The position numbers were made by a program, and so were the translations under genes. The notes under the pieces were generated by a model. It ran no database searches and was not told the DNA's origin. It worked only from the letters and a program-made list of their open reading frames with translations. A stretch of 64,000 bases of DNA from a virus. Lineage: Duplodnaviria > Caudoviricetes. The stretch spans positions 1-64,000 of IMG/VR virus record IMGVR_UViG_3300020577_010124. One strand, 5' to 3'. Positions 4,625 to 42,847 of the stretch are shown piece after piece (within the stretch, counting starts at the first letter, position 1; each line of letters opens with the position of its first letter).

Positions 4625-6025
4625 ATGAAGTTTATCAACAAAACGAAGAACACAGTACAACTTGACGATATCAACCTTTCAATATCATATAACGATGGAT
4701 TGCCTCAAGAAATAGACACGCAATCAGTAAAGAAGAGTTTTGCTTTTCAAAACATGATATCTTTAGGCGGTTTCGAGGTTATTGAAGCCTCTGACGACCG
4801 ACTTGAAAAAAACTTATTCAAAACTAGTAAGAAGTACGAAAAGCCAGAAAAAGTTGAAATTAAAAGATTTGATAGTAGTGCGAACATAGAAACGATTGTT
4901 AGGGGTCATTTTTATGAATCTAGCGGCTATGCTAAGGTCAATCGTAATCTTGTTCTAAATCTTGCAAGACAGGGTATAGGAGTAGAAATAGATCCTATTT
5001 CAATGCGACACAACGATTTGAATGAAGTTGAAGCTCGCATGTTGTCTATGTTCAGAAAACCTATGGGAAAAGACGCTATACTTATTGATAGCGTTATTCC
5101 AACTCATTGCCAAGCAAATAGCCAGCCATACAAGATACTCTATACAACAGCAGAATCGGTTGAAGTTCCTAGACAGTTTATAGACTCAGCTAATCAATAC
5201 GACGAGCTATGGGTAACAAGTAGCTTTTCCAAGCAAGCATATGAAAGAAGCGGTTATGTAGGCAAAATATATTTAATGCCACCCATTATAAATAAATTCT
5301 TGTACAAGGAGCAAGTTGCGCCTTATGAGTTCCGTCCAAAGCTCTCTGGATTTGTCTTTACAAGCGTCATGACATGGGGATACAGAAAAGGCTCAGATGC
5401 CCTAATTAAAGCCTTTTCCAGAGCATTTTCAGACTCTGACGACGTAAGCCTTGTTCTGCTGGTTGCGGAGAGATCCAAAGCCAAGAGAGAGGCTATCAAA
5501 AAAGAAATTAATTACCTAACAAATTATAAATTATCTACACACAAAATTTTATTGTGCCATAAAAACGTTCCTGAATATCAGATGCCGTCCTTCTACAAGG
5601 CTTCCAATGTATTCGTTCTTCCTTCAAGGGGAGAGGGTTTTGGTATCCCGTTCTGCGAAGCTTCTCTTTGCGGTCTTCCAGTTATATCAACTCGGTATGG
5701 CGGGCAGATGGATTTTTTGAATGACGAAAACTCAACCTTGGTTGATATTGACACGATAGAGCGACCTAAAGACGGAGAGACAGGAATTCATTATTGGGAC
5801 AATCAGCCATTTCCTAGTTTGAAATCCGATAAGTTCATAGATAACCTGGCTGAATCCATGATTTTTGCGCGGAAAAACTACGAACTTATAAAGAGCAAAA
5901 ACGTTTTGCTTCAAAATGCTATAACTAGTCGCTTTAGCGGAGAGGTTGTAGGGAAGACGGCTAAGAGCATACTGGACATAGCTTGGAAAGGAATAAAAAA
6001 TGATAGTGTTTCTAAATCCAACTGA
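4625..6025 (+). CDS. GT-B glycosyltransferase (GT4-like) with extra N-terminal domain
   Basis: SGYAKVNR, DELWVTS, RKGSD, FVLPSRGEGFGIPFCEASLCGLPVIST motifs. Start moved to ATG 4625 because the ORF-track start overlaps the tRNA. Confidence 0.85.
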   Translation: MKFINKTKNTVQLDDINLSISYNDGLPQEIDTQSVKKSFAFQNMISLGGFEVIEASDDRLEKNLFKTSKKYEKPEKVEIKRFDSSANIETIVRGHFYESSGYAKVNRNLVLNLARQGIGVEIDPISMRHNDLNEVEARMLSMFRKPMGKDAILIDSVIPTHCQANSQPYKILYTTAESVEVPRQFIDSANQYDELWVTSSFSKQAYERSGYVGKIYLMPPIINKFLYKEQVAPYEFRPKLSGFVFTSVMTWGYRKGSDALIKAFSRAFSDSDDVSLVLLVAERSKAKREAIKKEINYLTNYKLSTHKILLCHKNVPEYQMPSFYKASNVFVLPSRGEGFGIPFCEASLCGLPVISTRYGGQMDFLNDENSTLVDIDTIERPKDGETGIHYWDNQPFPSLKSDKFIDNLAESMIFARKNYELIKSKNVLLQNAITSRFSGEVVGKTAKSILDIAWKGIKNDSVSKSN

Positions 6026-6608
6026 TAGAACAATAACAATTTGCGATAAAATCGTAACAGTATATTCTTGGTCGCAAACGAAAACTCTCAAATCTATTCT
6101 AAGCGGTAACAATGTAATTTATGTTACTGACGCTGTTGAGACTTCAGGAGAAGAGGTTCTGCAAGTCATACAAGAATCAATGACAGAAGACGACCTAGGC
6201 GATCAGACTATAGTAGCAAATGAACAGTTGTATTTTCATACAACTCAAAGCGGAGCAATGATGGTATCATATGCTAATAAGGTATATACCTTCAAGGGAG
6301 CGGGAGATTTAAGAAAGATACAAGACCTTCCAGAAGGCCTACTAGAAAACTGCTCATATGTTGTTGACGGAATGAAGAGCGGTTTGTTTGAGATCGTTGG
6401 AGAAGAAGAAAAGAATCAAATTCTAGAAGAAGTAAACGCAAAGAAGACAGATTTTCATAACAAGAAGAACAACATTCTTGTTGATAGCGGCGTTTCTGCT
6501 TCTGACGCAGCAGAAGGTAAGAAAGGTAAGTTTAGCGCTAAGGGTAGTGTTGACGACCCAATTGAGATTGATCTATCTCCTGGCGCTGGCTTCAAAAAAG
6601 GTTACTAA
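6000..6608 (+). CDS. Hypothetical protein (shares small domain with the 4625 and 50229 proteins)
   Basis: 202-aa ORF with RBS, overlapping the upstream stop. Confidence 0.6.
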   Translation: MIVFLNPTDRTITICDKIVTVYSWSQTKTLKSILSGNNVIYVTDAVETSGEEVLQVIQESMTEDDLGDQTIVANEQLYFHTTQSGAMMVSYANKVYTFKGAGDLRKIQDLPEGLLENCSYVVDGMKSGLFEIVGEEEKNQILEEVNAKKTDFHNKKNNILVDSGVSASDAAEGKKGKFSAKGSVDDPIEIDLSPGAGFKKGY

Positions 6609-7418
6609 ATGAAGATTGCAATACTGAATTTTGAACAACCTTGGCACGTACTTGCTTCTACAAGCCTTATTAGAGGCTTGAAGCATGCTTATCCGTCAGC
6701 CTCGATTTCATTCTTTGTAAGTCAAGAAAGTTTTCCGATTATTCAATTCAACAAGAGCGTTGAAGCCATAAGCGGTTATATATCCCCAAATATTGAAAAG
6801 TTTGATTTAGCCATCAATATGAGTCCCAGTCTTGAGGCTTGTAATTTTATGACAGAGATCCCCTCTGTTGATAAAAAGGGCTTTACTGAAAAACTAGGTT
6901 CTGTAACATCGCTTAATGCTGATGCTGATGAATATTTTTCTATCATGCATAATGGTAACAAAAGCGAGAGGCATGCGCTACAGGTTATTTTTAGACTTTG
7001 TGGCATGACATGGAAGGGCGAAGGGTATGACCTTGCATACTTTCCTAAGAATAAAACAAATAGAAAGAAGACGGGCATCGCCATATCTCACGATCCTCTT
7101 AGAACGTTTGTAAAAAACAACCTAAAGCTAGAAATGACAGATATTTGGCATGTTCCTATGAAGAAGAATCTTTTCAAGAGGATGGACGAGATAAATCGTT
7201 GCATGTATATACTGACGGATGATTTATTTACTCTTCATGCCTCTATCGCATTGAGGAAGAACGTTGAGTTCTTAGATGTTATAGGATTGAACACAAGGCT
7301 TGAGTTTTTTGGAAGAGGAAATTACTATAGGATATCAGATGGAGACTGGCGAGTTCAAATGGAAAAAGACGGAGTTGAAGAAAACCTACGATCGACCGAA
7401 GAAGCGTGTGACGTATGA
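6609..7418 (+). CDS. GT9 (heptosyltransferase-like) glycosyltransferase, divergent
   Basis: MKIAILNFEQPWHVLASTSLIRGLKHAYPSASISFFV and TDDLFTLHASIALRK resemble WaaC/WaaF N- and C-terminal motifs; the canonical GD is replaced by WH. Confidence 0.65.
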   Translation: MKIAILNFEQPWHVLASTSLIRGLKHAYPSASISFFVSQESFPIIQFNKSVEAISGYISPNIEKFDLAINMSPSLEACNFMTEIPSVDKKGFTEKLGSVTSLNADADEYFSIMHNGNKSERHALQVIFRLCGMTWKGEGYDLAYFPKNKTNRKKTGIAISHDPLRTFVKNNLKLEMTDIWHVPMKKNLFKRMDEINRCMYILTDDLFTLHASIALRKNVEFLDVIGLNTRLEFFGRGNYYRISDGDWRVQMEKDGVEENLRSTEEACDV

Positions 7419-8163
7419 GCCTTCAATGATGGGATTTCAGCCAATCTACGGAGATGGGAAATACGTAAGAGTTGCAATATTAGATAGTGGTTGTCCTATT
7501 CATAATGATATTAGTACAGATCCTCATAAGTGCGCAAATTTTACAACAAGCGGAAGTCTTTTTGATGTTTACGGACATTCAACTGCTATTGCAGGATTGA
7601 TAGCTTCCAAAAATCATAGTTTGCAAGGATTTGCCCCACTAACAGATTTATACTTTGGTAAGTGCTTGTTGGACTCAGATGGCAATGGAGAGTTCAACTC
7701 TGTTATACAATCAATCTTTTGGGCAATTGTTCGAGAAGTTGACATAATCGTTATGGCGTTTGGAACGACTAAAGAGAATCCAAACCTTCATGACGCTATA
7801 AAAAAAGCCAATCGGTGCGGTATAGCGATTTTTGCAGCAGCAGGCAACTATGCTACAAGAACAAGAGATGCTGATTTTCCTGCCCGATATGACGAGGTTT
7901 TTTCGGTAGGATATGCTAATAATATAACGAGTAATGAAGTTGTTCGAGTTGACGGTAAAGCTAGAGGTATCGTTCTTCCTCTACAAGAGTTTGAAACAAC
8001 ATTTGTCGATTCTAAATTTGCAACCATGAGCGGTAGTAGTATGCATACAGCAGCAGTTGCAGGAGTCGCAGTATTGGCATTTCAAAAATTAAGAAAGAAT
8101 GGAAGTAATATAAAGAACCCTCAACTATTGTATGACGAGATTGGTCGTCTTTCTCAAAAATAA
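7339..8163 (+). CDS. Subtilisin-like S8 serine protease
   Basis: VAILDSG (Asp), YGHSTAIAG (His), AAAGN (oxyanion Asn), SGSSMH (Ser). Likely start ATG 7339. Confidence 0.9.
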   Translation: METGEFKWKKTELKKTYDRPKKRVTYEPSMMGFQPIYGDGKYVRVAILDSGCPIHNDISTDPHKCANFTTSGSLFDVYGHSTAIAGLIASKNHSLQGFAPLTDLYFGKCLLDSDGNGEFNSVIQSIFWAIVREVDIIVMAFGTTKENPNLHDAIKKANRCGIAIFAAAGNYATRTRDADFPARYDEVFSVGYANNITSNEVVRVDGKARGIVLPLQEFETTFVDSKFATMSGSSMHTAAVAGVAVLAFQKLRKNGSNIKNPQLLYDEIGRLSQK

Positions 8164-8175
8164 CAGGAAGTCTTA

Positions 8176-11100
8176 ATGCCTCATGTTCCTCGTAACAAAT
8201 GCTGTTTCCCTAATGCTAACGAGATCATTTACGATCCGTCAGTTTTGGGCGATTGGAGCAATGTTGATCCAGGAACAGTTGAGCATGCTCTTGATATACT
8301 TGCTGATAGACTTACAGAAGTTGAGTTGCATGGTGGACCCGTTGATGCTTCAGATGTAGCTTATGAGCCAAACTCTCTCGCTTGCTGGGAAGGAAGTAGT
8401 GATCCAGGCAATGTTGATGATGCCCTAGATCAACTTGTTCTTAGAGTTTGCGATCTTGAATCCTTAGCTATAAATCAACTATCTGATGTAAATATAACTA
8501 ACGTTCAAAATCAAGATACGCTTATTTATGATACAGCAACTCATAAATGGGTAAACGTGCCTAGCGCTGTTGGTTCGAGCGGCTATTCTGGTTACGCTGG
8601 CAATTCAGGATATTCAGGTTACTCGTCAACAAGTGGCTTTAGTGGCTATTCTTCTAATTCAGGATACTCAGGCTATTCAGGATCTGGGGTTTCAGGATTT
8701 AGTGGTTATTCGGCAGTTGGTACAAGCGGTTTTTCTGGATACTCTGCAACATCAGGATTTAGCGGTTATAGTAGTCACAGTGGTTTTTCTGGATACTCTG
8801 CAACATCTGGTTTCTCGGGTTACTCTTCTACTTCAGGTTTTAGTGGATATAGTTCACAATCTGGATTTAGTGGCTACATTGGTACTTCAGGCTTCTCTGG
8901 TTATATTGGTCAAAGTGGATTCTCTGGTTATGTAGGAGTATCGGGCTTCTCTGGTTACTCTTCTACTTCTGGCTTTTCTGGATATTCTTCAACGTCTGGT
9001 TTTAGTGGATACTCAGGAAAATCTGGTTTCTCAGGCTATAGTTCTGCGTCAGGATTCTCGGGCTACATCGGACAAAGTGGATATTCAGGTTTCAATGGTC
9101 AATCAGGATATTCTGGATATAGCGGTTTTAGAGGAACACAGTGGTATACAGGCCCTGATTTTGGATCATTTGATCAGAACACAGGAACAGCAGGTGATTT
9201 CTTTTATGATTCCACTACTGGAATTATCTGGCAAAAGATAGATAATGTTCCAACATGGGTTCAACTTGCTAACACTTCAGGCTTCTCTGGTTATAGTTCT
9301 GCTTCAGGGTTTTCAGGGTATTCTGGAAAGTCAGGATTCTCAGGGTATTCAAGTCAAAGTGGTTTCTCTGGTTACATAGGTTCGAGTGGATTCTCTGGTT
9401 ACTCTTCAACATCTGGCTTTTCAGGTTATTCAAGCACTTCTGGCTTTAGTGGATATAGTTCACATTCTGGCTTCTCGGGATACTTAGGCCAAAGTGGTTT
9501 TAGTGGTTACAGTTCGCAATCAGGTTTCTCAGGTTACAGTTCTACTTCAGGATTCTCTGGTTATAGCGCAACAAGTGGTTTTTCTGGATACTCAAGTACA
9601 TCGGGATTCAGTGGATACTCTTCAACGTCTGGCTTTAGCGGATACAGCGGTCGTTCAGGAATAAATGGAGCGACAGGACTATCTGGATTTTCTGGCTACC
9701 AAGGTATTTTTGGTGGTGATAGTTTTGTTTATGAGTATCTTGAAGGTGGAGTATCAGGATCTGGCCCATTCCCAGGCGTTGTAAATTGGGAAACAAGCCC
9801 AGGAAATACAACGCCCTCTGTAAGTCTAGCGCTTTATATAGGCATTAATACTTATGACTATAATGGTGCTGATGTTACTAATTGGATAAATAGCTTAGAT
9901 GATTCAACAAATAGCATTCGTGGATCAATTAGAATATTTGCTATTGATAATTCTGCCAAGTTTGCAGATTTTCAAATAACAGGTAATGTAACTGTTGACG
10001 GAGGAAATACGTGGGGATTGTTTATCCCCGTTGTTCCTGTTGTTTCTAATCCAAGCGATACTCCATTTGTTAATGGAGATATTGTAGTTGTATCGTTTAC
10101 AAGAGCAGGAGATGTTGGATCAACAGGAGCAACGGGGCTGAGTGGTTTCTCTGGATATTCCTCAGTTTCAGGTTTTTCTGGTTATTCAGGTAGATCAGGA
10201 TTCAGCGGTTATTCTTCAACATCAGGTTTCAGTGGCTATTCAAGCGCTTCAGGATTCAGCGGTTATAGTTCAACATCAGGCTTTAGTGGTTATGTTGGCT
10301 TGAGTGGTTTTTCTGGTTACATTGGTACATCAGGATTCTCAGGGTATATTGGATTAAGCGGATTTAGTGGTTACATTGGTACATCAGGATTTTCAGGGTA
10401 TATTGGCTTGAGTGGCTTCAGCGGATATTCAAGCGCCTCAGGGTTCTCTGGTTATAGTTCTGCTTCAGGTTTCTCAGGATATTCAAGCGCATCTGGCTTT
10501 AGTGGATATTCTTCTACGAGCGGTTTCTCTGGTTATTCAAGCGCATCTGGCTTTAGTGGTTACAGTTCAACATCTGGATTTAGCGGATACTCAAGTGCCT
10601 CTGGTTTCTCTGGCTATCTTGGACAGTCAGGTTTTAGTGGCTTCGTTGGTATTAGTGGATTTTCTGGTTATAGTTCAACTTCAGGCTTTTCTGGATATAT
10701 TGGAACGTCAGGATTCTCAGGCTATATAGGGTTGAGTGGTTTCTCTGGTTATTCTTCAACTTCTGGTTTCAGTGGATATTCTGGTAAATCAGGATTCTCA
10801 GGGTATGTTGGTATTTCTGGTTACAGTGGCTATTCAGGAATGTTTGGGGGAGATAGTCAGCCGTATTTCTTTAGCACTACAACTGCCGACACCGATCCAG
10901 GTAACGGGTTTATAAGATTCAATAACTCAACTTATTCTTTAGCGAGCGTTCTTGTTATTGATCCAATTAATGCTGACGGAGTTGATATAAGCACATGGAT
11001 TAGCAGTCTTTGTACTTCTACCAATCCTATAGCTGGAAATCTAAGAATAGTACATCGTAATAATTCTTCTGTTTTTGTTGACTATTTATTAACATATGCT

Positions 11101-16315: not shown

Positions 16316-16327
16316 TCGAGGTGTTTT

Positions 16328-16732: not shown

Positions 16733-16734
16733 GA

Positions 16735-17058: not shown

Positions 17059-17070
17059 TAGGAATTTTAT

Positions 17071-20057: not shown

Positions 20058-20059
20058 AA

Positions 20060-34534: not shown

Positions 34535-35945
34535 GAGAATGGCATTGTGTCTATCAGGGCAAGCAAGGGCAGTCAAGGCTTGTCTTTCGTCTATTCAGGA
34601 TTGCATAATAAAACCATTTGGTCACGTTGATGTTTTTATACACACATGGTTTGTTGATAAATACTCTACTGATAAATTCAACGTTAGCGGTCTAGAGACT
34701 TCAAATGTTTTTGATTGCTCTTTGCAAGAATATCTTGATTGCTATAATCCAGCTTCAGTAGCAATAGAAGATTTTGCTCGTTCTAAATATTTTCATTGTA
34801 ATAATCTATCAGATAGAGTTAGAATTGCTTTTTATGTTATTCATAAAAGTAATCAAGTAAAAAGAGAATATGAAATAGAGAATAATCTTAATTATGATTA
34901 CGTAATTCGATGTCGAACTGATTTGAAGTTTGAAAGAAGACTTACAGAACAAGATCTTGAGTGCGTAAATGATGGTTCTATTTTGATTCCGTCTATGCTA
35001 GATTTTGGAGGAGTTAACGATCAGTTTGCTATTGGAACGCCTACAAGCATGAATAAATATGCGTCTTTGCATAATCGTTTAGACAAGTATCTATTTGTAG
35101 ACGGATTACCTTATGATCCAGAACGGCTAATGAAACATCATATTAATTCTATGAATCTTGAGCTTCATAGATTTCGTTTTGATTATAGTATAGTCAAGAA
35201 AAGTATGAAGTATCCGCCAGGAAAAGGATACATAGTAACTGACACGCCAGAAGTCAAAAAGTATTTGACAATGCAGAAAGATTCTTATGACAGTCAAGGT
35301 TCTCATTGGACAGTAAATGCTAAAGATTATGTAGTTGGTAGTTATGAAGCTCATAATCGTTGGGCAGACTATGACTTGTTATTATTCAAAGGTTTTGATA
35401 CAAAAGGCTTGGTTGCTTTGGAGTATGGATGTGGACCAGGTCGAAATCTGATTCGTTTCAAAGATCGCTTTAGTCGCATAGACGGCGTTGATATTTCTTC
35501 AGTTGTTTTGGACAAAGCAAGAGAAAACTTAGAACACGAGCATTTGCCTATACCAAATCTTGTTCTTTCAGACGGCAAAAGTATTGACAGAGATGATCAT
35601 TCTTATGACGTTGTGTTTTCTGTGATATGTATGCAGCATATATGTGTTCATGAGATTCGATACAATATTTTCAAAGAGATATATAGAGTTCTGAAGCCAG
35701 GTGGATATATGTGTATCCAGATGGGTTTTGGCGGAAAATATGTCGAAATAACATGGGCCAAGTATAAAGAAAACTGCTATGACGCAACAGCAACAAACGG
35801 TTTTTATGATGTCTCGATTGAGAATGAAGACGAGCTAAAACGAGATCTTTACGAGATAGGTTTCAAGAATTATAAGTCCGATATTGCTCAGACAGGGCCA
35901 GGCGATAATCATAGAAACTGGATTTGGTTTCAAGTACAAAAGTAA
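34518..35945 (+). CDS. Putative glycosyltransferase-like domain fused to class I SAM methyltransferase
   Basis: N-terminal ALCLSGQAR..DVFIHTW..YDYVIRCRTD..NDQFAIG; C-terminal LEYGCGPGR..GVDIS..RVLKPGG. Confidence 0.75.
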   Translation: MNLSHKRMALCLSGQARAVKACLSSIQDCIIKPFGHVDVFIHTWFVDKYSTDKFNVSGLETSNVFDCSLQEYLDCYNPASVAIEDFARSKYFHCNNLSDRVRIAFYVIHKSNQVKREYEIENNLNYDYVIRCRTDLKFERRLTEQDLECVNDGSILIPSMLDFGGVNDQFAIGTPTSMNKYASLHNRLDKYLFVDGLPYDPERLMKHHINSMNLELHRFRFDYSIVKKSMKYPPGKGYIVTDTPEVKKYLTMQKDSYDSQGSHWTVNAKDYVVGSYEAHNRWADYDLLLFKGFDTKGLVALEYGCGPGRNLIRFKDRFSRIDGVDISSVVLDKARENLEHEHLPIPNLVLSDGKSIDRDDHSYDVVFSVICMQHICVHEIRYNIFKEIYRVLKPGGYMCIQMGFGGKYVEITWAKYKENCYDATATNGFYDVSIENEDELKRDLYEIGFKNYKSDIAQTGPGDNHRNWIWFQVQK

Positions 35946-35953
35946 GGAAATGC

Positions 35954-36988
35954 ATGACTTCTCAAGTAGACGTAACAGTTGAAATATCAACAAAAGACAG
36001 ATATTACACGACCTTGCCAATCGCTCTTGTTTCAGTAGCGAATCAAACATACAAGCCTAAAAAGGTTCTTGTTTTTGACGACGGAGAGGGAAAAGATCTT
36101 AGAGAAGATCCGCTTTATTCTAGTATCTTTGCCCTATATGCTTCTAAGAATATAGATCTAGTTGTTATGTTTGGGCAAAAGAAAGGCCAAGTTCATAATC
36201 ATCAGGGCGCTATTTCTTTAGCAACAACTGAATGGATTTGGCGAATAGACGACGACGATGCGCCTGAAGCAAATGTTCTAGAAAAAATGGTTCGTCATAT
36301 TCGAGACGACGTTGGAGCTATTAGCGGTTTAGTTCTTGTTCCAGGCGAGTTTAGCGAAGATATGGGAGAAGGGTCTGGTAAGATAGAAGATATTTTTACA
36401 AAGCCTCATATCCAATGGTTCAAGTTTTCAGGGGTCAAAGAAGTTGATCATCTAAATAATACCTTTCTATTTCGCAAATCAGCAGTTAAGCATGGTTATT
36501 GCATGGAGTTATCACCCGTAGGTCATAGAGAAGAGACTATGTTTACCTATGAGATAAAACTAGCAGGATACAAGCTTCTTGTTGATTCTGAGGCGGTCAT
36601 TTGGCATCTTCGTTCTCCGAAGGGTGGTATTCGATCTTATGAGCATGCATTCTTTTGGGACCATGACGAAAGAATATTCCAAAGAAAGCTTGAGGAGTAT
36701 GGGGTCAAATCGAAGCTAGAAAAACTTATTGTTTTAGATTGCGGACTTGGAGATCATTATGCTTTCAAAATGATGCTACCAGAAGTCAAAGAAAAATACA
36801 AAGACCAAAACCTTGTTCTAGCAGTATGTTATCCAGAAGTCTTTACTGACGAGAATGTAAGACTTATCTCAATTGCTGAAGCAAAGACTCTTGAGAAGAA
36901 TATGGATAAGCATAATGTCTATAAATTTATGATGGATAGAAATTGGACAGGTCGCCTTGTAGACGCATACAGAAAGATGATACTATGA
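35954..36988 (+). CDS. GT2 glycosyltransferase fused to GT9-like N-terminal half
   Basis: VTVEISTKDR..VFDDG..RIDDD..HREET; C-terminal LDCGLGDH..CYPEVF. Start ATG 35954 with RBS. Confidence 0.8.
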   Translation: MTSQVDVTVEISTKDRYYTTLPIALVSVANQTYKPKKVLVFDDGEGKDLREDPLYSSIFALYASKNIDLVVMFGQKKGQVHNHQGAISLATTEWIWRIDDDDAPEANVLEKMVRHIRDDVGAISGLVLVPGEFSEDMGEGSGKIEDIFTKPHIQWFKFSGVKEVDHLNNTFLFRKSAVKHGYCMELSPVGHREETMFTYEIKLAGYKLLVDSEAVIWHLRSPKGGIRSYEHAFFWDHDERIFQRKLEEYGVKSKLEKLIVLDCGLGDHYAFKMMLPEVKEKYKDQNLVLAVCYPEVFTDENVRLISIAEAKTLEKNMDKHNVYKFMMDRNWTGRLVDAYRKMIL

Positions 36989-37470
36989 AAAGAATAATAA
37001 TTAGCCCTTATTCAAAGAAGCTTAGAAAACTCAAGGCTTCAGATCCAGATAAAACAAATCCTAAGAACTATCCGTTTTGGAAGCTTGTTGTAGCTAAACT
37101 AAAAACCAAAGGATATCATGTTATTCAAGTTGGAGTTGCTGGCGAAGAATCAATAGGTGCAACAGAGGTTAAGCTAAATCTAAGTCTAAAAGAATTAACA
37201 GAACTTCTTATGACTTGTGATACTTGGGCTTCTGTGGATAACTTTTTTAACCATTTTGCTACTTATAATGGCAAACGAGGGGTTGTTGTTTTTGGTCGTT
37301 CAGATCCTGAAATTTACGGATATGCTGAAAACATAAATTTGCTAAAAGATAGAAGCTGTCTTCGTATGGATCAATTTGGTTTGTGGGAATCTGACGAATT
37401 CAGAAGAGATGTTTTTGTAGACTCAGATGTTGTCGTAGAGGCTATAGAAAAACTCTCAGAGCAAAAATAG
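36985..37470 (+). CDS. GT9-like C-terminal half
   Basis: KNYPFW..VIQVG..LSLKEL..SVDNFFNHFA..GVVVFG; ATGA overlap with the upstream gene. Confidence 0.75.
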   Translation: MKRIIISPYSKKLRKLKASDPDKTNPKNYPFWKLVVAKLKTKGYHVIQVGVAGEESIGATEVKLNLSLKELTELLMTCDTWASVDNFFNHFATYNGKRGVVVFGRSDPEIYGYAENINLLKDRSCLRMDQFGLWESDEFRRDVFVDSDVVVEAIEKLSEQK

Positions 37471-37536
37471 AAGGAAAACGGATAGTTCTAGGTAAATATT
37501 AGTATCGTTTATAGGTACTTTACCTAGGAAGAATAC

Positions 37537-39381
37537 ATGCCCTTTTCAGTACGAGTCCCCGACTCTCTTACGGAACAATCAGACGTAAGTATTTTGTCCC
37601 CAACAGAGGGGCAAGGTTTGATATTTAATCAAACAACTGGCAAATGGGAAAATAGAATTGTAGCAGGAACGTCAGGCTATAGCGGCTACTCTGGATCAAG
37701 TGGTTTTTCTGGTTACAGCGGCAATTCAGGATATTCAGGTTACATTGGCATATCTGGTTATTCTGGTTATTCTGGTAGATCTGGTTTCTCTGGCTACAGT
37801 TCAGTTTCAGGTTTTTCTGGTTATAGTTCAGCTTCAGGCTTTTCAGGATATATTGGTCAAAGTGGTTTTTCTGGCTATAGCGGTAGATCAGGTTTTAGCG
37901 GCTATTCTGGTATAGGAACCTCTGGGTTCAGTGGTTATAGCTCATTATCAGGATTTAGCGGTTATTCAAGTACAAGTGGATTTAGCGGTTATAGTTCAAC
38001 CTCTGGCTTCTCTGGTTATATAGGTCTATCAGGTTTCTCAGGTTACATAGGCCTATCAGGGTTCAGTGGTTATTCTTCTACAAGTGGTTTCTCTGGATAT
38101 TCTGGTCAGTCTGGATTTTCTGGCTATATTGGAATATCAGGATTTTCAGGCTATAGTTCCATAAGTGGTTTTAGCGGCTATTCAGGACAATCAGGATTTA
38201 GTGGTTACATTGGTGTTTCAGGATTTTCTGGCTATATTGGGACAAGCGGTTTCTCAGGCTACTCTTCGGTTTCTGGTTTTTCAGGATATAGTTCTCAATC
38301 AGGATTCTCGGGATACTCAGGTAAATCAGGTTTTTCTGGTTATTCAGGATTAACTGGTCTTTCTGGTTTTAGTGGTTATAGTTCTTTGTCAGGATTTAGT
38401 GGTTATTTAGGACAGTCAGGTTTCTCTGGATATTCAGGCGCAGGTTTCTCAGGTTTTTCTGGATACTCTTCAACATCTGGATTTAGTGGTTATAGTTCGA
38501 TTTCAGGATTTTCAGGATACTCTGGAATAATAGGTAGTTCAGGATTTTCTGGATATGTTGGAACTTCAGGGTTCTCGGGATACTCAGGTTTTAGTGGATT
38601 AGATGGTAATGATGGAGCATCAATAGTTTGGAAAGGCGACTATAATAATGGTTATGCTTATTACCATATTAATGATGCTGTTTACTATCAAGGTAATGCA
38701 TATATATGTATAGGAGGAAGCGGTCTTCAAGGCATTAATCCAACAGATACTAATTTTTGGGGCTTAATGGCGTTGGGTGGAGCGTCAGGTTTTAGTGGAT
38801 ATTCTGGAAGTACGGGAACAGATGGAGGTTCAGGATTCTCTGGATACTCTTCAACATCAGGTTTTAGTGGATATTCTGGTAAGTCAGGATTCTCTGGTTA
38901 TTCTGCATCATCAGGATTTTCAGGTTACTCAGGCGCTGGATTGAGTGGCTTTTCTGGATATTCCTCAGTAGGGTTGTCGGGTTTCTCAGGATATTCAGCA
39001 ACAGGATTAAGTGGATTTAGTGGCTATTCGGCAACAGGTCAATCAGGCTTCAGTGGATATTCAGGAGCAGGTTTGAGTGGATTCTCGGGTTATAGCTCAA
39101 CTTCTGGTTTTAGTGGTTATTCAAGCGTTGGATTGAGTGGTTTTTCTGGATATTCAGGCGGTACAGGTACTGATGGAAATTCGGGATTTAGCGGATATAT
39201 TGGATTTTCAGGTTTTAGTGGATATTCTGCGATAGGAAATTCAGGATTTTCAGGGTATAGCGGTATAGGAAACTCTGGTTTCTCAGGTTTCAGTTCTATA
39301 TCAGGTTTCAGTGGTTATTCGGGCGGAGGCGGCGGTGGAGTTAGTATGGCTTTTGTAATAGCTATGGCTACAGCTTTGTGA
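37537..39381 (+). CDS. Third SGFSGY-repeat fibre protein with carbohydrate-binding-like insert
   Basis: Anchor motif, repeats, WKGDYNNG..Y..NDAVYYQGNAYIC..W insert, C-terminal AFVIAMATAL. Confidence 0.7.
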   Translation: MPFSVRVPDSLTEQSDVSILSPTEGQGLIFNQTTGKWENRIVAGTSGYSGYSGSSGFSGYSGNSGYSGYIGISGYSGYSGRSGFSGYSSVSGFSGYSSASGFSGYIGQSGFSGYSGRSGFSGYSGIGTSGFSGYSSLSGFSGYSSTSGFSGYSSTSGFSGYIGLSGFSGYIGLSGFSGYSSTSGFSGYSGQSGFSGYIGISGFSGYSSISGFSGYSGQSGFSGYIGVSGFSGYIGTSGFSGYSSVSGFSGYSSQSGFSGYSGKSGFSGYSGLTGLSGFSGYSSLSGFSGYLGQSGFSGYSGAGFSGFSGYSSTSGFSGYSSISGFSGYSGIIGSSGFSGYVGTSGFSGYSGFSGLDGNDGASIVWKGDYNNGYAYYHINDAVYYQGNAYICIGGSGLQGINPTDTNFWGLMALGGASGFSGYSGSTGTDGGSGFSGYSSTSGFSGYSGKSGFSGYSASSGFSGYSGAGLSGFSGYSSVGLSGFSGYSATGLSGFSGYSATGQSGFSGYSGAGLSGFSGYSSTSGFSGYSSVGLSGFSGYSGGTGTDGNSGFSGYIGFSGFSGYSAIGNSGFSGYSGIGNSGFSGFSSISGFSGYSGGGGGGVSMAFVIAMATAL

Positions 39382-39388
39382 GGATTAT

Positions 39389-39982
39389 ATGAAGAGATTA
39401 TTAGGAACAGATGTTAGCGGCAGTTACGCTTTTAGTGCAGCAGGTAAGACCGTGACATTTTCTGGTTTATCTTACACTATAACTTTAGCTAATATTTTAC
39501 TCATAACAAATGTTACCGCTAATACTATCATTTATAATTTTGCAGATCCAACAAACGGGGCTGCTAGTTTCAATAATAACATATTGACATTGGATTATGA
39601 TACGACTTCAATGGCTGATGGAAATGTATTACAGATATATCTTGATCTTGAAAGCAATGAAGAGAGCTTGCATGCTTTGTTAAGAAGAATGAACAAGTTG
39701 CTTGAAAGCAATGCAGTAGTCGATAGCTCTTTAAGACAAAGAGTTGTTGTTGAAGCGGCTCCAACAACTGCTGTAACTTTAGCTTCGGCTCCAACAACTG
39801 CTGTTACAAATACTACTGGTTTTGGTACAGCATATACAATAAACACCCCAACAAGCCCTTATGGACAAGTTTCATCTAACGTATTGGCTGTTTACGAAGC
39901 CCCAGTAGATCAGCGTTGGAGAATTGTTGATGCGGCAAGAACGGCCTATGCAGTTGGAATTAGACAGAATTTGACGTTTTGA
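39389..39982 (+). CDS. Fibre-associated protein
   Basis: ILLITNVTANTIIYNFADP..LTLDYDTTSM...LQIY pattern; APTTAVT repeated twice. Confidence 0.55.
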   Translation: MKRLLGTDVSGSYAFSAAGKTVTFSGLSYTITLANILLITNVTANTIIYNFADPTNGAASFNNNILTLDYDTTSMADGNVLQIYLDLESNEESLHALLRRMNKLLESNAVVDSSLRQRVVVEAAPTTAVTLASAPTTAVTNTTGFGTAYTINTPTSPYGQVSSNVLAVYEAPVDQRWRIVDAARTAYAVGIRQNLTF

Positions 39983-40000
39983 TTTTGGAGAATACATTAG

Positions 40001-42847
40001 ATGGCACTTACAAATAAGCTACAAAAAATCGTTGACCTTCCAGTATTTGAATGGTTGAGGTTTGCTCCTACGGCAACAGCAGCCCCGTCTGGTCTTTGTG
40101 CAACAGACGATCTTGGCGGAAGGTTTATGTATTACTTAGTAGCCTCAACTTTTTATAGATATGATCTTTACTCAGATTCATGGCAAGTTTTGGCTCCACC
40201 GAATACGGCTCCTGCTACTTTGATGACAATGAAATATAGCAAGTATTCTGGATATAGAGGACAAGCCATTGCAGGTGGCGCTTCTACGATAACATTAGCA
40301 GGTCTACGGAATAACTTACTTGTTGGACGGACTATTAAGATACTTACTGGAACTGGTGCTGGACAATCAAGAACAATATCATCAATTGCTGAAGCTGTTA
40401 TTGCTGATTTTGGCGTTGTTACTTCAGCCGCAGTCGCAAGCATTGGTGATTCAACAAAGAGATGGAGAATTAATCAATGGGAAGGCTATCAAGTTAGACT
40501 TGTTTATAGTACAGGCCAAACTCAGATAAGAAAAATTCTCTATAATGACACGACTACTTTGTACTTTAATGATACAAACTATCAAGCAATAGATTCATTT
40601 AATAATACTGGTTTCTCGGTAGTCGCTCCTTATGCTGCTCCTATTACAACCGCTGGTTCTCAGACTCACTATGTTATTGAATCTTCTGTTGCAACTGTAA
40701 ACTCTGCTTGGGATACTCAACCTGACAATACTTCTAAGTACCTCATTCAGAGCGGCGGCATTTTTATGTTTTCTTCCGCCGCAGGCGCTCCATTTTCTTC
40801 TTTCCAATGGTACGACATTTTAGCTGATACATGGTATTCAAGAACCGCCATCGGCGGACTTCTTTTGGCTGCCTTTGGTACAGATGCAGCGTTGGATAGA
40901 ACTGGTGAAGTTGGCGGAGCTTTCTTGTCAGGAACATCTTCTGATACTGGTACTGCAAGAACTCTTATTGATTCAACGCAAACAATGACATATGATAGAT
41001 ATGCAAACTACCAAATAAGAATTACAGGCGGAACTGGAATAGGTCAAAAGAGAAGAATAGTTGCAAATAATGATACAACATTTTGGATAGAACGAACTTG
41101 GGATGTAACTCCTGATAACACTTCAACATATTCAGTATATGGAGATACTGATAAGATATGGCTTATGGGAAATGGTAGCTCATGCATGTTTCAGTATTCT
41201 GTTGATTTAGATTCTTGGGCAAGTGGTCCAATTTCTGATGGTGGTGTATGTAGAAATATGTGCGCAACTCTAGTCGGGGGAAGTTCGATTCCTCCTGAAG
41301 AGGGCATAGCTATAACTTCGATTGTTAGAACAACAAGCGGTATAGCAAGCGGCGCAGTTAACGCTGCTGGAACAAACTATATTGTAGGAGATTTGGTTAC
41401 CTGTTCAACTACTGGTACCCTTGGCAGATTTTATGTTACTGCTGTAACAACAGGTGGAGCAGTAAGTTCATTGCAACTTGCGGCATCTGGATCTGGATAT
41501 TCTAACGGTTCTTCTGCAACCACAGGCGGTACTGGATCTGGTTTAACAATAACTTTGACTGTTGGAACTACAGGCCTTGTAACAACGGCTATTAACCATA
41601 ATTTCCAGATAGGACAAACAGTTACTATATCAGGATGCGCTACAGATGTTACATGGAACGGAAACTTTACTATTACAGGAAGCGATGCTCTTACAACTTT
41701 CTCCGTTTCTGGATCGGGAACATCCGCCAGCCCTACAGCGGCAAACTCTCAATCAACTACTGTGATTGTTGATGCTTGTCAAAACTGGATAACAAATGAG
41801 CATGTAGGTAAAGTTGTAAACCTAAATACCGCAGGTGTTTCTCCTACTACTCAGTCAAGAAGAATTACTGCTAATACGGCAACAACGCTAACAGTGGCAA
41901 CTATCGTTGCAGGCGTTAACGGTACTTCAAGATATAACATACAGTCTATTCATGGATTTGGAGCCTATCAGACTAATAAGATTCCAGCAAGAGGCAACTC
42001 TGGCTGGGCAACCGCTGGTACGGGCACAACTCTTACAGATTCAACTAAGGCTTGGACTATTAACCAATGGCTTAACTGTAGAGTTAGAGTTATTTCTGGA
42101 ACTGGCGTTGGAAATGAAGCTGCAATTACGGCTAATAGTCCAACTGTTCTTACTGTTGCCTCATGGCCTAATGCAACTCCTGATACTACCTCTAAGTACG
42201 TAATTTTGGATTCATTTGGTATAGCGACTTCAGGTGCTTTGAATACAATCAATGATACTGCTAAGAACTGGACTACGAATATCCTAGCAGGTAAGAGAGT
42301 TAGAATTATTGCTGGAACAATAGCTGGCTCTGAAGCCGCTATTACGAGCAATACTGCTACAGCTATTACTACTACTATTGGTACTCCTGACGCTACATCT
42401 GCGTATGTCATATATGATCCTCCTGCTCGATCTACAGGAACTAGTTTGAACTGGTTATTTGGATTAAGTAATACTACCAACAAAGGTAAATGGATTATTT
42501 CCTCAAGAGGCGGCGGTTCAAATGCGTTTGATATTTATGATATAACAACAAACCGTTGGGATATCACGCCGTTCTTTGATACGCAGACTGAAACGCAATC
42601 AACAGGAAGCATGTATACATATGACGGCGCAGATACTTTGTATTTTACGAGAGACAATACAGGTCGTATATTTGCTTTGAGCTTGGAGAACTTTACGATA
42701 GTTCCATGCGCTACAACTCCATATGCTCAAGGTACGGCTATTATTGGAAATAGAATGGAAGTTATAGAAACCGAGGACGGTTTGCAGTATATTTATGTTA
42801 TGAGACATTCGGGACAGGAATTCTGGCGAACTCTCAAATTTTGGTAA
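40001..42847 (+). CDS. Large Thr-rich virion protein: kelch-like propeller blades interrupted by repeated beta-domains (putative adhesin)
   Basis: FYRYD..DSW, QWYD..DTW, DIYDI..NRW blades; about six DS(T).W..N...V.I..GTG.G...I..N....PD.TS.Y repeats. Confidence 0.55.
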   Translation: MALTNKLQKIVDLPVFEWLRFAPTATAAPSGLCATDDLGGRFMYYLVASTFYRYDLYSDSWQVLAPPNTAPATLMTMKYSKYSGYRGQAIAGGASTITLAGLRNNLLVGRTIKILTGTGAGQSRTISSIAEAVIADFGVVTSAAVASIGDSTKRWRINQWEGYQVRLVYSTGQTQIRKILYNDTTTLYFNDTNYQAIDSFNNTGFSVVAPYAAPITTAGSQTHYVIESSVATVNSAWDTQPDNTSKYLIQSGGIFMFSSAAGAPFSSFQWYDILADTWYSRTAIGGLLLAAFGTDAALDRTGEVGGAFLSGTSSDTGTARTLIDSTQTMTYDRYANYQIRITGGTGIGQKRRIVANNDTTFWIERTWDVTPDNTSTYSVYGDTDKIWLMGNGSSCMFQYSVDLDSWASGPISDGGVCRNMCATLVGGSSIPPEEGIAITSIVRTTSGIASGAVNAAGTNYIVGDLVTCSTTGTLGRFYVTAVTTGGAVSSLQLAASGSGYSNGSSATTGGTGSGLTITLTVGTTGLVTTAINHNFQIGQTVTISGCATDVTWNGNFTITGSDALTTFSVSGSGTSASPTAANSQSTTVIVDACQNWITNEHVGKVVNLNTAGVSPTTQSRRITANTATTLTVATIVAGVNGTSRYNIQSIHGFGAYQTNKIPARGNSGWATAGTGTTLTDSTKAWTINQWLNCRVRVISGTGVGNEAAITANSPTVLTVASWPNATPDTTSKYVILDSFGIATSGALNTINDTAKNWTTNILAGKRVRIIAGTIAGSEAAITSNTATAITTTIGTPDATSAYVIYDPPARSTGTSLNWLFGLSNTTNKGKWIISSRGGGSNAFDIYDITTNRWDITPFFDTQTETQSTGSMYTYDGADTLYFTRDNTGRIFALSLENFTIVPCATTPYAQGTAIIGNRMEVIETEDGLQYIYVMRHSGQEFWRTLKFW

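Follow-up and report, generated by a model that had tools for sequence, protein, structure and literature searches.

The glycosylation of collagen-like proteins has a bacterial precedent in BclA with its rml genes. Among viruses, precedents are the fibril glycocalyx of Mimivirus and its enzyme L780, which corresponds to PDB entry 7JID (PMC9614988), and the glycosylation of mycobacteriophage virions, cited in PMC12619734. In the literature, no paper was found that interprets phage glycosyltransferases (GTs) like those described below as fibre-glycosylating.

The window analysed here (64 kb) is the start of a 170-kb fragment, equal to 34% of the genome, of a phage-G-like huge phage, that is, an uncultured very large phage and kin of Bacillus phage G. 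All genes named in the initial annotation are present as uninterrupted + strand ORFs. In the 170-kb record, 101 of the 107 ORFs of at least 150 aa are on the + strand. The sugar and fibre island begins directly downstream of the capsid gene.

3482..4384, + strand, major head protein (MCP; phrog_2522 3.1e-65; 52% identity to Bacillus phage G gp27)
4523..6025, + strand, GT4 (Pfam Glycos_transf_1 63.2 bits, cut-off 26.4)
6000..6608, + strand, conserved protein between the GT4 and GT9-like genes (syntenic homologues in 14 loci)
6609..7418, + strand, GT9-like (GT-B) protein, a lead only (Atlas features 0.95 to GT9 clusters; structural TM 0.83)
7300..8163, + strand, subtilisin-type (S8) protease, immediately before the giant fibre gene (Pfam Peptidase_S8 83.5 bits; phrog_3677)
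8176..15864, + strand, giant fibre, 2562 aa (Pfam Collagen 509.7 bits)
15908..18165, + strand, four small or medium ORFs between the 8176 and 18204 fibres
18204..20057, + strand, fibre, 617 aa (Pfam Collagen 27.8 bits, barely above the 27.2 cut-off)
20042..22193, + strand, three ORFs: a virion-structural-like protein, a protein with no assignment and a conserved 329-aa protein (phrog_10356 1.4e-17)
22255..31227, + strand, soluble polyprotein, 2990 aa (six GT2, three GT17 and three methyltransferase domains)
31248..32009, + strand, 253-aa ORF, GT-A-like domain without its first strand (homologue in relative G018 is a separate ORF)
32006..32974, + strand, RmlB, dTDP-glucose 4,6-dehydratase (TIGR01181 426.1 bits, cut-off 365.1)
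32971..33795, + strand, 3,5-epimerase/4-reductase, bifunctional, resembling plant NRS/ER and Mimivirus L780
33797..34534, + strand, RmlA-like glucose-1-phosphate thymidylyltransferase (Pfam NTP_transferase 186 bits)
34518..35945, + strand, fusion of DUF7796 and a SAM-dependent methyltransferase (domain matches)
35924..36988, + strand, GT2 of a phage-wide family (Pfam GT2 50 bits)
36943..37470, + strand, GT9-like C-terminal (nucleotide-sugar-binding) half, directly upstream of the 37537 fibre
37537..39381, + strand, fibre, 614 aa (Pfam Collagen 146.6 bits)
39389..42847, + strand, two companions of 197 aa and 948 aa, the latter Thr/Gly-rich (phrog_5838 "virion structural protein" 1.8e-10)
55366..56559, + strand, GT4-like, sub-threshold, flanked by connector-like genes and the tail tube gene

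Fibre genes and sugar enzymes

The three SGFSGY-repeat genes reported to flank the sugar island are confirmed at 8176, 18204 and 37537, and contain 172, 26 and 50 copies of SG[FY]SG[FY], respectively. They are composed of (Gly-Tyr/Phe-Ser)n triplets, with approximately 600 Y-position serines across 3,793 aa. In register, the first position is Gly in 81-89% and Ser in 10-14% of triplets, the second is Tyr or Phe in ~67% and the third is Ser in 87-100%, while the longest unbroken register extends over 321 aa. The claim that at least one residue in three is Ser holds within the repeat tracts (32-34%) but not over the whole proteins (23-28%). In animal collagen the Y position is taken by hydroxyproline, whereas in the phage fibres it is taken by Ser and the tracts are proline-free (Pro 0-0.1%). 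Since 11-19% of the "Gly" positions are occupied by Ser or Ala, a true triple helix is only putative.

The 8176 fibre has ten in-register tracts with six copies of a ~125-aa beta-domain between them, and its N-terminal domain (~100 aa) is shared with non-collagen proteins found at the same position in relatives. The 18204 fibre consists of a conserved N-terminal motif, repeats, one ~125-aa interspersed domain, repeats and a TNF/C1q-like knob. In the 37537 fibre, the repeat tract makes up 82% of the protein, accompanied by an aromatic insert of ~50 aa and a C-terminus that is short and hydrophobic.

The domains of the polyprotein follow the order GT2, GT2, MT24, GT17, MT24, GT2, GT17, FkbM-MT, GT2_5, GT2, GT17, GT2; a search for transmembrane segments in it found none. 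Its orthologue in the 494-kb relative (G003) has 2494 aa and is 60% identical over 851 aa. The 31248 ORF gave no family match in profile searches; the DNA shortly before it, in frame and following an A9 run, encodes the missing first strand. The epimerase-reductase had been correctly identified, as its matches are 4qqr (2.9e-44) and the UDP-L-rhamnose synthase 7jid (1.8e-37), against 5e-7 or weaker for bacterial RmlD structures. It would finish L-rhamnose synthesis without RmlC; together with RmlB and RmlA (TIGR01207 242 bits, under the equivalog cut-off of 360) it makes up a three-enzyme route to nucleotide-L-rhamnose.

The 35924 GT2 carries a conserved C-terminal extension of ~85 aa with a GLGDH motif. 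The following gene, which probably starts at the ATG at 36985, had been annotated as GT9; the family assignment stands as GT9-like, but only the C-terminal half is present and the Pfam GT9 score is sub-threshold (20 bits against 22). This GT9-half family is strongly conserved (19 invariant alignment columns), and its profile matches the heptosyltransferase WaaC at 1.2e-4 and not significantly the protein heptosyltransferase TibC (E 0.68).

Near the capsid gene, the GT4 probably starts at the ATG at 4625, as initially annotated; its homologues align from residue 35 and adjoin MCP downstream in 28 of 76 related loci. The 6000 protein had no match in family searches. The GT proposed at 6609 is GT9-like by Atlas features and structure but has no Pfam or NCBIfam match, and it is conserved after MCP in 26 loci. 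The S8 protease, syntenic in 25 loci, is a candidate fibre-processing enzyme. The tail-side GT, previously placed at 55387, is present as the 55366-56559 ORF, but its GT4 match is sub-threshold (Pfam Glyco_trans_1_4 25.3 bits against 27, E 2e-5; phrog_2170 5.4e-4); an orthologue with 59% identity holds the same place in G003. The earlier count of about 15 GT domains is fair: 11 are firm, of which the polyprotein supplies nine and the 4523 GT4 and the 35924 GT2 one each; with both GT9-like genes the total is 13, and 2-3 weaker leads lie beyond (13 to 16). There are four methyltransferase domains, three of them fused with the nine GT domains in the 2990-aa chain.

Among the smaller genes, the ORF at 16328-16732 matches phrog_10330 "virion structural protein" (4.6e-20), and the ORFs of 15908..18165 have copies in another locus (L086) with 87-89% identity. 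A homologue of the 329-aa protein (21204) lies directly before the poly-GT gene in G003 and G018, and the companions at 39389..42847 likewise come after the fibre in G017 and G018.

Distribution of fibres and enzymes

The fibre, GT and rhamnose genes form a conserved, co-inherited unit and are syntenic in the 494-kb relative. There, the order is MCP, GT4, an unassigned ORF, GT9-like, S8 protease, fibres, the 21204-homologue, the poly-GT, RmlB, NRS/ER, RmlA, GT2 and GT9-half, followed by a 218-aa gene with a fibre-type N-terminus and no repeats. G018 has the same order plus ~20 kb of SGFSGY genes. The link of fibre and enzymes survives rearrangement in G017, where the enzyme block (GT4, GT9-like, S8, a 1627-aa poly-GT and GT9-half) is ~85 kb from the fibre, which stays next to MCP.

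Within the phage-G-like clade, strong matches of the GT9-half occur in G000, G001, G003, G005, G017 and G018, exactly the six long SGFSGY records, and in 0 of the 13 others, including G009, which has an ordinary Gly-X-Y collagen. GT17 and the poly-GT are found in 5/6 SGFSGY carriers and 0/13 others. The carriers of the GT9-half mostly belong to one subclade of the MCP tree and, because its branches force only two changes, the contingency table does not amount to six independent events. A single-domain GT2 exists in 18/19 clade members, with fibres or without; therefore, GT content as such is not diagnostic.

Across IMG/VR, the co-occurrence test of SGFSGY repeats and GT genes proposed at the outset was also positive. 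Outside the clade, 22-23 of 40 non-redundant SGFSGY loci have a same-strand cassette beside the fibre, consisting of a poly-GT-like GT2, a 35924-like GT2 and the GT9-half. The initial annotation would have been contradicted by SGFSGY fibres commonly occurring without GTs, and this check does not speak against it: GT2-type genes, in most cases multi-domain and often in ORFs of 1,000-2,060 aa, are present in 7-8 of the 9 SGFSGY-bearing records with a completeness of at least 77%. Conversely, of 63 non-redundant GT9-half loci, 61 have a GT2 partner and 33 a collagen-like ORF, in 26 cases an SGFSGY one; the fibre start is often <130 bp downstream. These fibres show at least seven unrelated N-termini; what the link follows is therefore the repeat rather than a single lineage.

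The GT9-half is phage-specific, with >549 stretches in IMG/VR against five in 185,579 prokaryote species genomes, all on short MAG contigs, and the pair of GT2 and GT9-half is virtually absent from prokaryote genomes. Within the DNA fetched, no partner was seen in ~40% of the SGFSGY loci or in around half of the GT9-half loci. Many of these are short fragments; the link is nevertheless not obligatory, because some have full 10-kb flanks (L087, L090, L156; L185, L220).

Proposed acceptors of the glycosyltransferases

Taken together, the genes suggest a phage-encoded cytoplasmic system of protein O-glycosylation, the main acceptors of which would be the phage's own collagen-like fibres (probability roughly 0.6). 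The phage probably sugar-coats its fibres, given that an enzyme pair confined to phages accompanies fibres of this kind in many phages that are not related. Fibre glycosylation is the best reading since the GT9-half and the pair track SGFSGY fibres and are nearly absent in prokaryote genomes, and since neither membrane export machinery nor DNA-hydroxymethylation genes were found. The sugar enzymes of the 170-kb record are all soluble. Late in infection, fibres would be produced in the cytoplasm alongside the enzymes. The GT2 and GT9-half beside the fibre gene are the best candidates for attaching the initial sugar to Ser. Elongation and O-methylation of a rhamnose-containing oligosaccharide might next be the work of the polyprotein, the GT4s and the methyltransferases. 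Such a glycan could stabilise a proline-free triple helix, shield it from proteases or add an adhesive surface. The fibres would act as virion-attached adhesins, on the head, neck or tail.

It is unlikely that the acceptors are other proteins of the virion (capsid, decoration, connector or tail tube, or the non-collagen proteins rich in Ser, Thr and Gly that relatives have), with the fibre genes merely lying in a common late structural operon. Of 76 related loci, 25-28 have GT4, GT9-like and S8 genes right behind MCP; complete genomes of 488 and 498 kb that lack collagen repeats and GT17 are among them, so these three enzymes may serve other acceptors. The GT4-like gene adjoins the tail tube gene, and capsid and tail-tube glycosylation in mycobacteriophages is the known phage precedent (PMC12619734). 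Against this reading, neither MCP nor the tail tube ends in an extended Ser/Thr-rich tail, the poly-GT, GT17 and the pair of GT2 and GT9-half track the SGFSGY repeat and not the capsid type, and elsewhere the pair directly adjoins fibres in tail-fibre modules. Remodelling of the host envelope (LPS O-chain, teichoic acid or capsule) during infection, which would block superinfection or keep progeny from re-adsorbing to debris, seems similarly unlikely. GTs in tail-fibre hypervariable regions of pelagimyophages and actinophages have been interpreted in this way (PMC7029224; PMC10202952), rhamnose, GT2, GT4 and GT9 are characteristic of pathways that make envelope glycans, and GT2 genes are ubiquitous in the clade. 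However, the 170 kb contain no priming transferase, flippase, polymerase, ligase, ABC exporter or multi-TM ORF, the enzymes are fused in a soluble chain inside a late morphogenesis block, and the scarcity of the GT9-half in bacterial genomes and prophages misfits lysogenic conversion or a host-derived module. Since the steps that are missing could be provided by the host itself, this reading is weakened only.

Hypermodification of phage DNA, in which glycosylated hydroxymethylated bases evade restriction, is very improbable. DNA glycosylation is common among phage GT roles (10.1101/2023.12.21.572611), and the last GT2 domain weakly matches a TET-associated glycosyltransferase below threshold (21.3 bits against 27.5). 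Yet the 170-kb record and the near-complete G003, G017 and G018 have no thymidylate-synthase-like hydroxymethylase and no TET/JBP dioxygenase (the TET search had no positive control), the genes lie in a structural operon rather than a replication module, and at least nine GT domains, a rhamnose route and O-methyltransferases go far beyond known DNA glycans. Thus, action on DNA or on the host envelope, named at the outset as what would speak against fibre glycosylation, is in both cases without its required parts.

The knob and the location of the fibres

The C-terminus of the 18204 fibre (aa 468-617) has a TNF/C1q-like fold by Foldseek. Its top structural matches are cyanophage tail fibres (cyanophage A4 tail, 2.3e-6), along with TNF ligands and BclA (2r6q, TMq 0.64). 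The end described as BclA-C-like is thus TNF-like in general and superposes on BclA, but by sequence it falls outside Pfam BclA_C. As a homotrimer, the knob model scored 0.79 against 0.00 for the best control, with at least 64% of contacts shared between runs and partner pLDDT of at least 66; the mark applied is attained by 20 of the 30 solved homo-pairs and by 1 of the 23 single chains, and the pass may reflect resemblance to solved TNF-like trimers. On these models, the 18204 fibre looks like a receptor-binding fibre with a trimeric knob, and the fibres seem to be built like known glycosylated adhesins.

A hairy layer or capsid glycocalyx coating the virion, as first envisaged, finds no specific support and is a guess as to where the fibres are; a knob of this kind is typical of receptor-binding fibres. 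In the cultured carrier, Methylophilaceae phage P19250A, the fibre sits instead in the tail module, after a J-like tail-tip gene.

Collagen-like fibers and the knob of one of them

The genes named in the initial annotation are all genuine open frames of the character it gave them. The genes on which the present analysis centers are:

3482-4384, major head protein (the capsid gene)
4523-6025, GT4 glycosyltransferase
6609-7418, GT9-like gene
7300-8163, S8 protease
8176-15864, giant fiber (2562 aa)
18204-20057, fiber with a C-terminal knob (617 aa)
22255-31227, polyprotein (2990 aa)
32006-32974, RmlB
32971-33795, epimerase-reductase (SDR)
33797-34534, RmlA-like protein
35924-36988, GT2 glycosyltransferase
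36943-37470, GT9-half
37537-39381, third fiber (614 aa)

The three fiber genes are collagen-like, with Pfam Collagen (PF01391) scores of 509.7 (8176), 146.6 (37537) and 27.8 bits (18204) against a cutoff of 27.2, and with 172, 50 and 26 SG[FY]SG[FY] motifs, respectively. Ser had been reported at about one residue in three, which holds within the tracts (32-34%) but not over the whole proteins (23-28%). The first position of the triplets is Gly in 81-89%, Ser in 10-14% and Ala in 1-5% of the cases. Among 154 nine-residue units in the giant fiber, 88 have Gly, 61 Ser and 5 Ala at the head of their third triplet. The longest tract in unbroken triplet register is 321 aa. The Pro/Hyp-rich X and Y positions looked for in the repeat tracts were not found. 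Since Pro accounts for 0-0.1% of the tracts, with Tyr/Phe at ~67% of X positions and Ser at 87-100% of Y positions, the fibers are termed collagen-like and not collagen.

In the giant fiber, ten repeat tracts alternate with a beta domain of ~125 aa that is present six times, and a seventh copy sits in the 18204 fiber (copies span 9712-15402 and 18534-18923). The model of this domain is confident (pLDDT 82). Among PDB folds there is no Foldseek match at E <=0.001, and the best VIA rows (a tailspike C-terminal domain and tube/Hcp-like entries; best Z 5.8) all fall in the chance range.

Two further elements are seen in the 37537 fiber. A ~50-aa aromatic insert (38614-38769; W.G.Y...Y..D.VYY.G..Y) recalls small carbohydrate-binding modules, and the protein ends (39340-39378) in a hydrophobic tail of 13 residues preceded by a run of Gly.

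In 18204, the only fiber of the three with a knob, the C-terminal 150 residues are modeled as a TNF/C1q-type jelly roll (pLDDT 77.5). Best fold matches are a tail protein of cyanophage A4, TNF-family ligands (7e-6, Foldseek), the short tail fiber of cyanophage A-1(L) in its carbohydrate-binding domain, a TNF-like lectin, ExsFA/BxpB and BclA. The model aligns to BclA (2r6q) with TMq 0.64 and TMt 0.69 in Foldseek, and to BclA_C clusters with an Atlas TM of 0.77. In Pfam, 18204 matches Collagen only at E <=0.01, with no BclA_C or C1q membership, and a profile of 20 knob homologs finds nothing significant among PDB sequences, the knob being identified by fold comparison only. The proposed BclA-C-like ending is therefore correct at the level of the fold but not as membership of the BclA_C sequence family, and the TNF/C1q fold is a standard receptor-binding head of phage fibers as well. 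Homologs of the knob were retrieved by exhaustive search (55 matches), whereas a word-index search returned the query itself. Three copies modeled as a trimer gave 0.79 against 0.00 for the best control, with at least 64% of contacts agreeing between runs and a partner pLDDT of at least 66. Of 30 solved homo-pairs, 20 attain this mark, as does 1 of 23 single chains; the success of the model may stem from its resemblance to TNF-like trimers already solved.

Enzymes of the sugar island

The domain order of the polyprotein is GT2, GT2, MT24, GT17, MT24, GT2, GT17, FkbM-MT, GT2_5, GT2, GT17, GT2. Located 3′ of it are RmlB, the SDR, RmlA, a DUF7796-methyltransferase fusion, the GT2 and the GT9-half, a 175-aa GT9-like C-terminal half.

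RmlB exceeds the cutoff of the NCBIfam equivalog for NDP-glucose 4,6-dehydratase (TIGR01181, 426.1 bits vs. 365.1). The RmlA-like protein matches Pfam NTP_transferase with 186 bits, and it is described as a glucose-1-phosphate nucleotidylyltransferase of provisional nucleotide specificity because its 242 bits for TIGR01207 lie below the equivalog cutoff of 360. The epimerase-reductase had been called correctly. Its closest structures are the Arabidopsis NRS/ER 3,5-epimerase/4-reductase (4qqr, 2.9e-44) and the Mimivirus UDP-L-rhamnose synthase L780 (7jid, 1.8e-37), whereas the similarity to bacterial RmlD structures is much weaker, and the rmlD model TIGR01214 scores 53.8 bits vs. 224. No dTDP-sugar isomerase match, that is, no separate RmlC, was found among the window ORFs of at least 100 aa. 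Together with the NRS/ER-type SDR, this indicates a rhamnose route of three enzymes, the last of them of the plant and giant-virus type.

The glycosyltransferases reported outside the island are of unequal standing. By the capsid gene, 4523 is a solid GT4 but the GT9 likeness of 6609 comes from Atlas features and structure only; the gene by the tail tube gene is GT4-like, though its GT4 match is subthreshold. The GT9-half itself scores 20 bits for Pfam GT9 against a cutoff of 22, and its profile matches WaaC at 1.2e-4 and TibC at E 0.68. The 35924 GT2 carries a C-terminal extension with a conserved GLGDH motif in the family alignment, the profile of which retrieves SpsA only from the PDB, through the GT2 part. 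PDB sequence searches with this GT2 and with one GT17 domain gave no matches. BLASTP of the GT9-half and of the GT2's C-terminal portion against the full-length GT9-like 6609, with a possible split GT-B enzyme in mind whose N-half would sit on the GT2 and whose C-half would be the following gene, gave none either.

The end of the polyprotein (...FKKKHL*, window 31203-31262) crosses a run of nine A (31211-31219). In the -1 frame past this run, KTLVIGRNWKF leads straight into the 31248 ORF. Taken alone, that ORF begins at a TTG and is short of the initial beta-strand of the GT-A fold. One more GT domain would be gained, for a protein of ~3,250 aa, whether the cause is a programmed -1 frameshift or an assembly error in the homopolymer. 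The homolog of 31248 is a separate ORF starting 14 aa further upstream in G018, a 187-kb relative, and is absent from G003, a relative of 494 kb.

Distribution of the fibers and enzymes

The source record, whose first 64 kb form the window, is a single linear virus sequence of 170,562 bp with no terminal repeats, ~34% complete according to CheckV, and its + strand holds 101 of the 107 ORFs of at least 150 aa. The major head protein matches phrog_2522 (3.1e-65) and shares 52% identity with gp27 of Bacillus phage G, a phage of 497 kb. In IMG/VR, 76 loci encode a head protein of 63-87% identity, several on contigs of 460-548 kb, and the record thus belongs to a well-populated clade of huge phages, uncultured and phage-G-like. 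In phage G itself, the capsid gene is not followed by any collagen or GT island.

The co-occurrence test suggested in the initial annotation was run in both directions, and the link between fibers and enzymes proved frequent though not obligatory, some loci with full flanks lacking the partner. Within the clade, 19 long records were searched. Single-domain GT2 genes are present in 18 of the 19 and are uninformative as a marker; they were consequently replaced by GT17/poly-GT and the GT9-half. GT17 occurs in five records, always within multi-GT frames of 1,630-2,990 aa (fragmented in G018), and all five have collagen matches. The 14 records in which GT17 is absent include only two with such matches, namely G001, a fragment of 34% bearing SGFSGY repeats, and G009, whose collagen is of the ordinary Gly-X-Y kind. 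Strong GT9-half matches coincide precisely with the six SGFSGY carriers and are found in none of the other 13 records.

The arrangement of these genes varies. In G003, the island is syntenic gene for gene, and in G018, these enzymes come after ~20 kb of SGFSGY genes. The enzyme block of G017 is displaced by ~85 kb while the fiber remains by the capsid gene, which shows that the co-occurrence is independent of adjacency. The six carriers were not accepted as independent cases, because the MCP tree places five of them within one seven-member subclade; at best two to four events are represented.

In G018 (loci L081-L083, 60001-120000), nearly all long genes are split into two to four frames, including MCP, GT4, S8, poly-GT, RmlB and RmlA. 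This looks like an indel-rich assembly rather than biology.

Outside the clade, a search of IMG/VR with the 37537 fiber yielded 74 loci in 40 nonredundant groups, on contigs of 5-258 kb. A same-strand cassette of polyprotein-like GT2, 35924-like GT2 and 36943-like GT9-half lies directly beside the fiber in 22-23 of the 40 groups. The number of GT-positive cases rose when whole records were searched. Among the nine fiber-bearing records of at least 77% completeness, seven to eight are GT-positive, several with multi-GT frames of 1,000-2,060 aa. All but one of the clear GT-negatives are fragments below 45% completeness.

In the reverse direction, the GT9-half profile matches more than 549 stretches in IMG/VR. 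For the best 63 nonredundant loci, the GT2 partner is present in 61 and a collagen-like gene in 33 (26 of the SGFSGY type). The fiber gene often starts 18-130 bp 3′ of the GT9-half, and the fibers found there have at least seven unrelated N-terminal domains. In a set of 185,579 prokaryote species with a single genome per species, the profile gave only five stretches, all on short MAG contigs. The variety of N-termini and the near-absence from prokaryotes indicate that GT2 and GT9-half form a phage-specific module tied to the repeat and not to one virion architecture.

A cultured carrier is the Methylophilaceae phage P19250A (KX815270.1; 38.7 kb). Its tail module includes, 3′ of a J-like tail-tip gene, a 1201-aa protein (locus tag P19250A_0023; 4750-8355) with 38 SG[FY]SG[FY] motifs, 25% Gly and 21% Ser. 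This collagen-like fiber carries the annotation "tail length tape-measure protein", and the three "hypothetical" genes after it are methyltransferase-like, GT2 and GT9-half.

A second group of genes (4523-8163; also noted at ~11000-15700 of loci L004, L005, L006, L008, L011 and L068), namely the GT4, an ORF of unknown character, the GT9-like gene and S8, is kept directly 3′ of the capsid gene in about one-third of the clade, also in complete genomes that have no collagen repeats. In these relatives, Ser/Thr/Gly-rich proteins of 600-1,100 aa take the place of the fibers after the block, and several share the ~100-aa N-terminal domain of the giant fiber. The block may be an older and more general module for modification of virion proteins.

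Candidate acceptors and neighboring genes

Glycosylation of virions by virus enzymes is established in chloroviruses, mimiviruses and some mycobacteriophages, and the GT genes of most phages are annotated by default as DNA- or LPS-modifying. The reading preferred here, with a probability of about 0.6, is that the phage enzymes O-glycosylate the phage's own fibers. It builds on the observed gene content, repeat chemistry, enzyme solubility, TNF-like knob and comparative linkage. In detail, the Y-position Ser residues would be glycosylated in the cytoplasm, the GT2 and GT9-half pair initiating the glycan and the polyprotein, GT4s and methyltransferases extending and methylating it as a rhamnose-containing chain. 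The S8 protease would process a fiber, and the glycan might stabilize or shield the proline-free helix.

A more specific version is tentative and rather doubtful. According to it, the fibers would be a true proline-free collagen whose helix needs Y-Ser O-glycans in the role of hydroxyproline, the phage-only pair of GT2 (with its C-terminal extension) and GT9-half would initiate, and the 12-domain polyprotein would build a defined O-methylated rhamnose oligosaccharide at ~600 sites. If so, bacterial viruses would have their own counterpart to the fibril glycocalyx of Mimivirus, and it would be widespread in aquatic phages. In the cuticle collagen of Riftia pachyptila, glycosylated Thr in Y replaces hydroxyproline as the stabilizer of the triple helix. 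By analogy, the Y-position Ser glycans may have a stabilizing role here, although the Riftia protein, an extracellular collagen of an animal, keeps Gly strictly and contains Pro.

The TibC/Aah autotransporter heptosyltransferases (GT9; PDB 4RAP) act in the cytoplasm and O-glycosylate a repetitive adhesin at many Ser residues. The GT9-like genes are proposed to work likewise, although sequence similarity is weak and the phage GT9-half corresponds to a C-terminal half of ~130 aa. In BclA of the Bacillus anthracis exosporium, the glycan is O-linked to the collagen-like repeat and an rml operon is nearby. The glycan contains rhamnose and anthrose (PMC6947953). Shared with BclA are the collagen-like stalk, whose Y position holds a hydroxy amino acid, the C-terminal TNF/C1q-like knob, trimeric in BclA and predicted so here, and the rhamnose synthesis genes adjoining the structural gene. 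On the contrary, the repeat is Gly-Tyr/Phe-Ser without proline instead of Gly-Pro-Thr, the knob is on one fiber of three, the genes belong to a phage and not a spore former, and NRS/ER finishes rhamnose instead of RmlC and RmlD.

In mycobacteriophages (Freeman et al. 2023, cited in PMC12619734), virion glycosylation involves one to a few GTs, and the capsid and tail-tube subunits accept the glycans on their C-terminal tails. Their soluble GTs, encoded beside structural genes, modify own virion proteins in the cytoplasm, as is proposed here; unlike in that system, the likely acceptors are collagen-like fibers, and there are far more enzymes, those of sugar synthesis included. Mimivirus has a fibril glycocalyx, collagen-like proteins with L230, and a UDP-L-rhamnose route of R141 and L780, the latter being 7JID (PMC9614988). 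Common to both viruses are a virus-encoded rhamnose route with the same bifunctional type of epimerase-reductase and collagen-like proteins low in proline, and the glycosylated, methylated fibrils of Mimivirus serve adhesion. However, Mimivirus is a eukaryotic giant virus without the GT2 and GT9-half pair, its collagen is glycosylated on hydroxylysine, and its fibril carriers are not its collagens.

For pelagimyophages, cyanomyophages and freshwater actinophages, GTs among tail-fiber or collagen-like genes in variable islands have been read as modifying host LPS or phage DNA, with no fiber-glycosylation reading, GT9-half family or poly-GT in these papers (PMC7029224, PMC10202952). Remodeling of the host envelope by the GT/rhamnose island would agree with this published reading of fiber-adjacent GTs, but it is improbable here. 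A hydropathy scan of all ORFs of at least 60 aa in the 170-kb record gave no integral-membrane priming transferase, flippase/exporter, polymerase or ligase as used by envelope pathways of the Wzx/Wzy, ABC or synthase type; it found a single clearly multi-TM protein, of 157 aa with three TM segments (59533-60006) near the tape measure, and a 65-aa + strand ORF with two hydrophobic segments (72787-72984), and the scan also flagged alternative-frame artifacts inside the fiber genes. The near-absence of the key enzymes from bacterial genomes, with five GT9-half stretches across the 185,579 prokaryote species, also speaks against an envelope role. The host could itself provide the missing priming and export steps. 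Hypermodification of phage DNA by the GTs is very improbable, as PF00303 (hydroxymethylase) and PF12851 (TET/JBP) are absent from G000 (this record) and from the three near-complete carriers G003, G017 and G018, the PF12851 search having been run without a positive control. Glycosylation of capsid or tube in the manner of mycobacteriophages by the GT4/GT9-like/S8 block is possible: the block follows the capsid gene even in relatives without collagen, but the C-termini of MCP and tail tube, read directly, have no Ser/Thr-rich acceptor tail.

As for the place of the fibers on the virion, their genes lie between the capsid gene and the connector-like gene 52719 (a weak PHROG match), a hint of head or neck fibers, whereas the knob and P19250A point to adhesive tail-type fibers. 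With the evidence split in this way, the "glycocalyx" coat of the initial annotation is an attractive image rather than a supported claim.

Virus-encoded virion glycosylation and glycosylated collagen-like surface proteins such as BclA are already known. The literature searched gave no combination of Ser-in-Y collagen-like phage fibers, GT2 and GT9-half, giant poly-GTs and an NRS/ER-type rhamnose route, and nothing relevant on collagen, GTs or rhamnose in jumbo phages or on GT17 in phages. Should the fibers be the acceptors, a very common accessory module of aquatic phages would gain a function (the GT9-half alone exceeds 549 IMG/VR stretches), glycans on host-recognition fibers would affect adsorption, protease resistance, particle stickiness and antigenicity, and a new proline-free, glycan-dependent collagen design would be offered for biomaterials. 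With its nine GT and three methyltransferase domains, the 2990-aa fusion would be an assembly line for glycans of a kind rare in nature, and the sequence of the glycan might be encoded in its domain order. As P19250A is in culture, fiber glycosylation is open to direct testing.

Several other genes of the morphogenesis block were recorded. A PhoH-like ATPase (45611-46426) lies among the structural genes, and its homologous domain in G003 is the C-terminal part of a 627-aa protein. A LAGLIDADG homing endonuclease gene (50819-51643), probably a recent mobile insertion, separates two genes (50169 and 51633) whose G003 homologs adjoin each other; related endonuclease genes were found in 14 MCP loci. 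The second of these genes (51633-52706) encodes an actin-fold protein in the middle of the block, with 212 bits for Pfam Volactin against a cutoff of 35 (E 1.9e-62) and 81% identity to its G003 counterpart. The 157-aa protein with three hydrophobic segments is placed between tail chaperone-like genes and a tape-measure-like gene.
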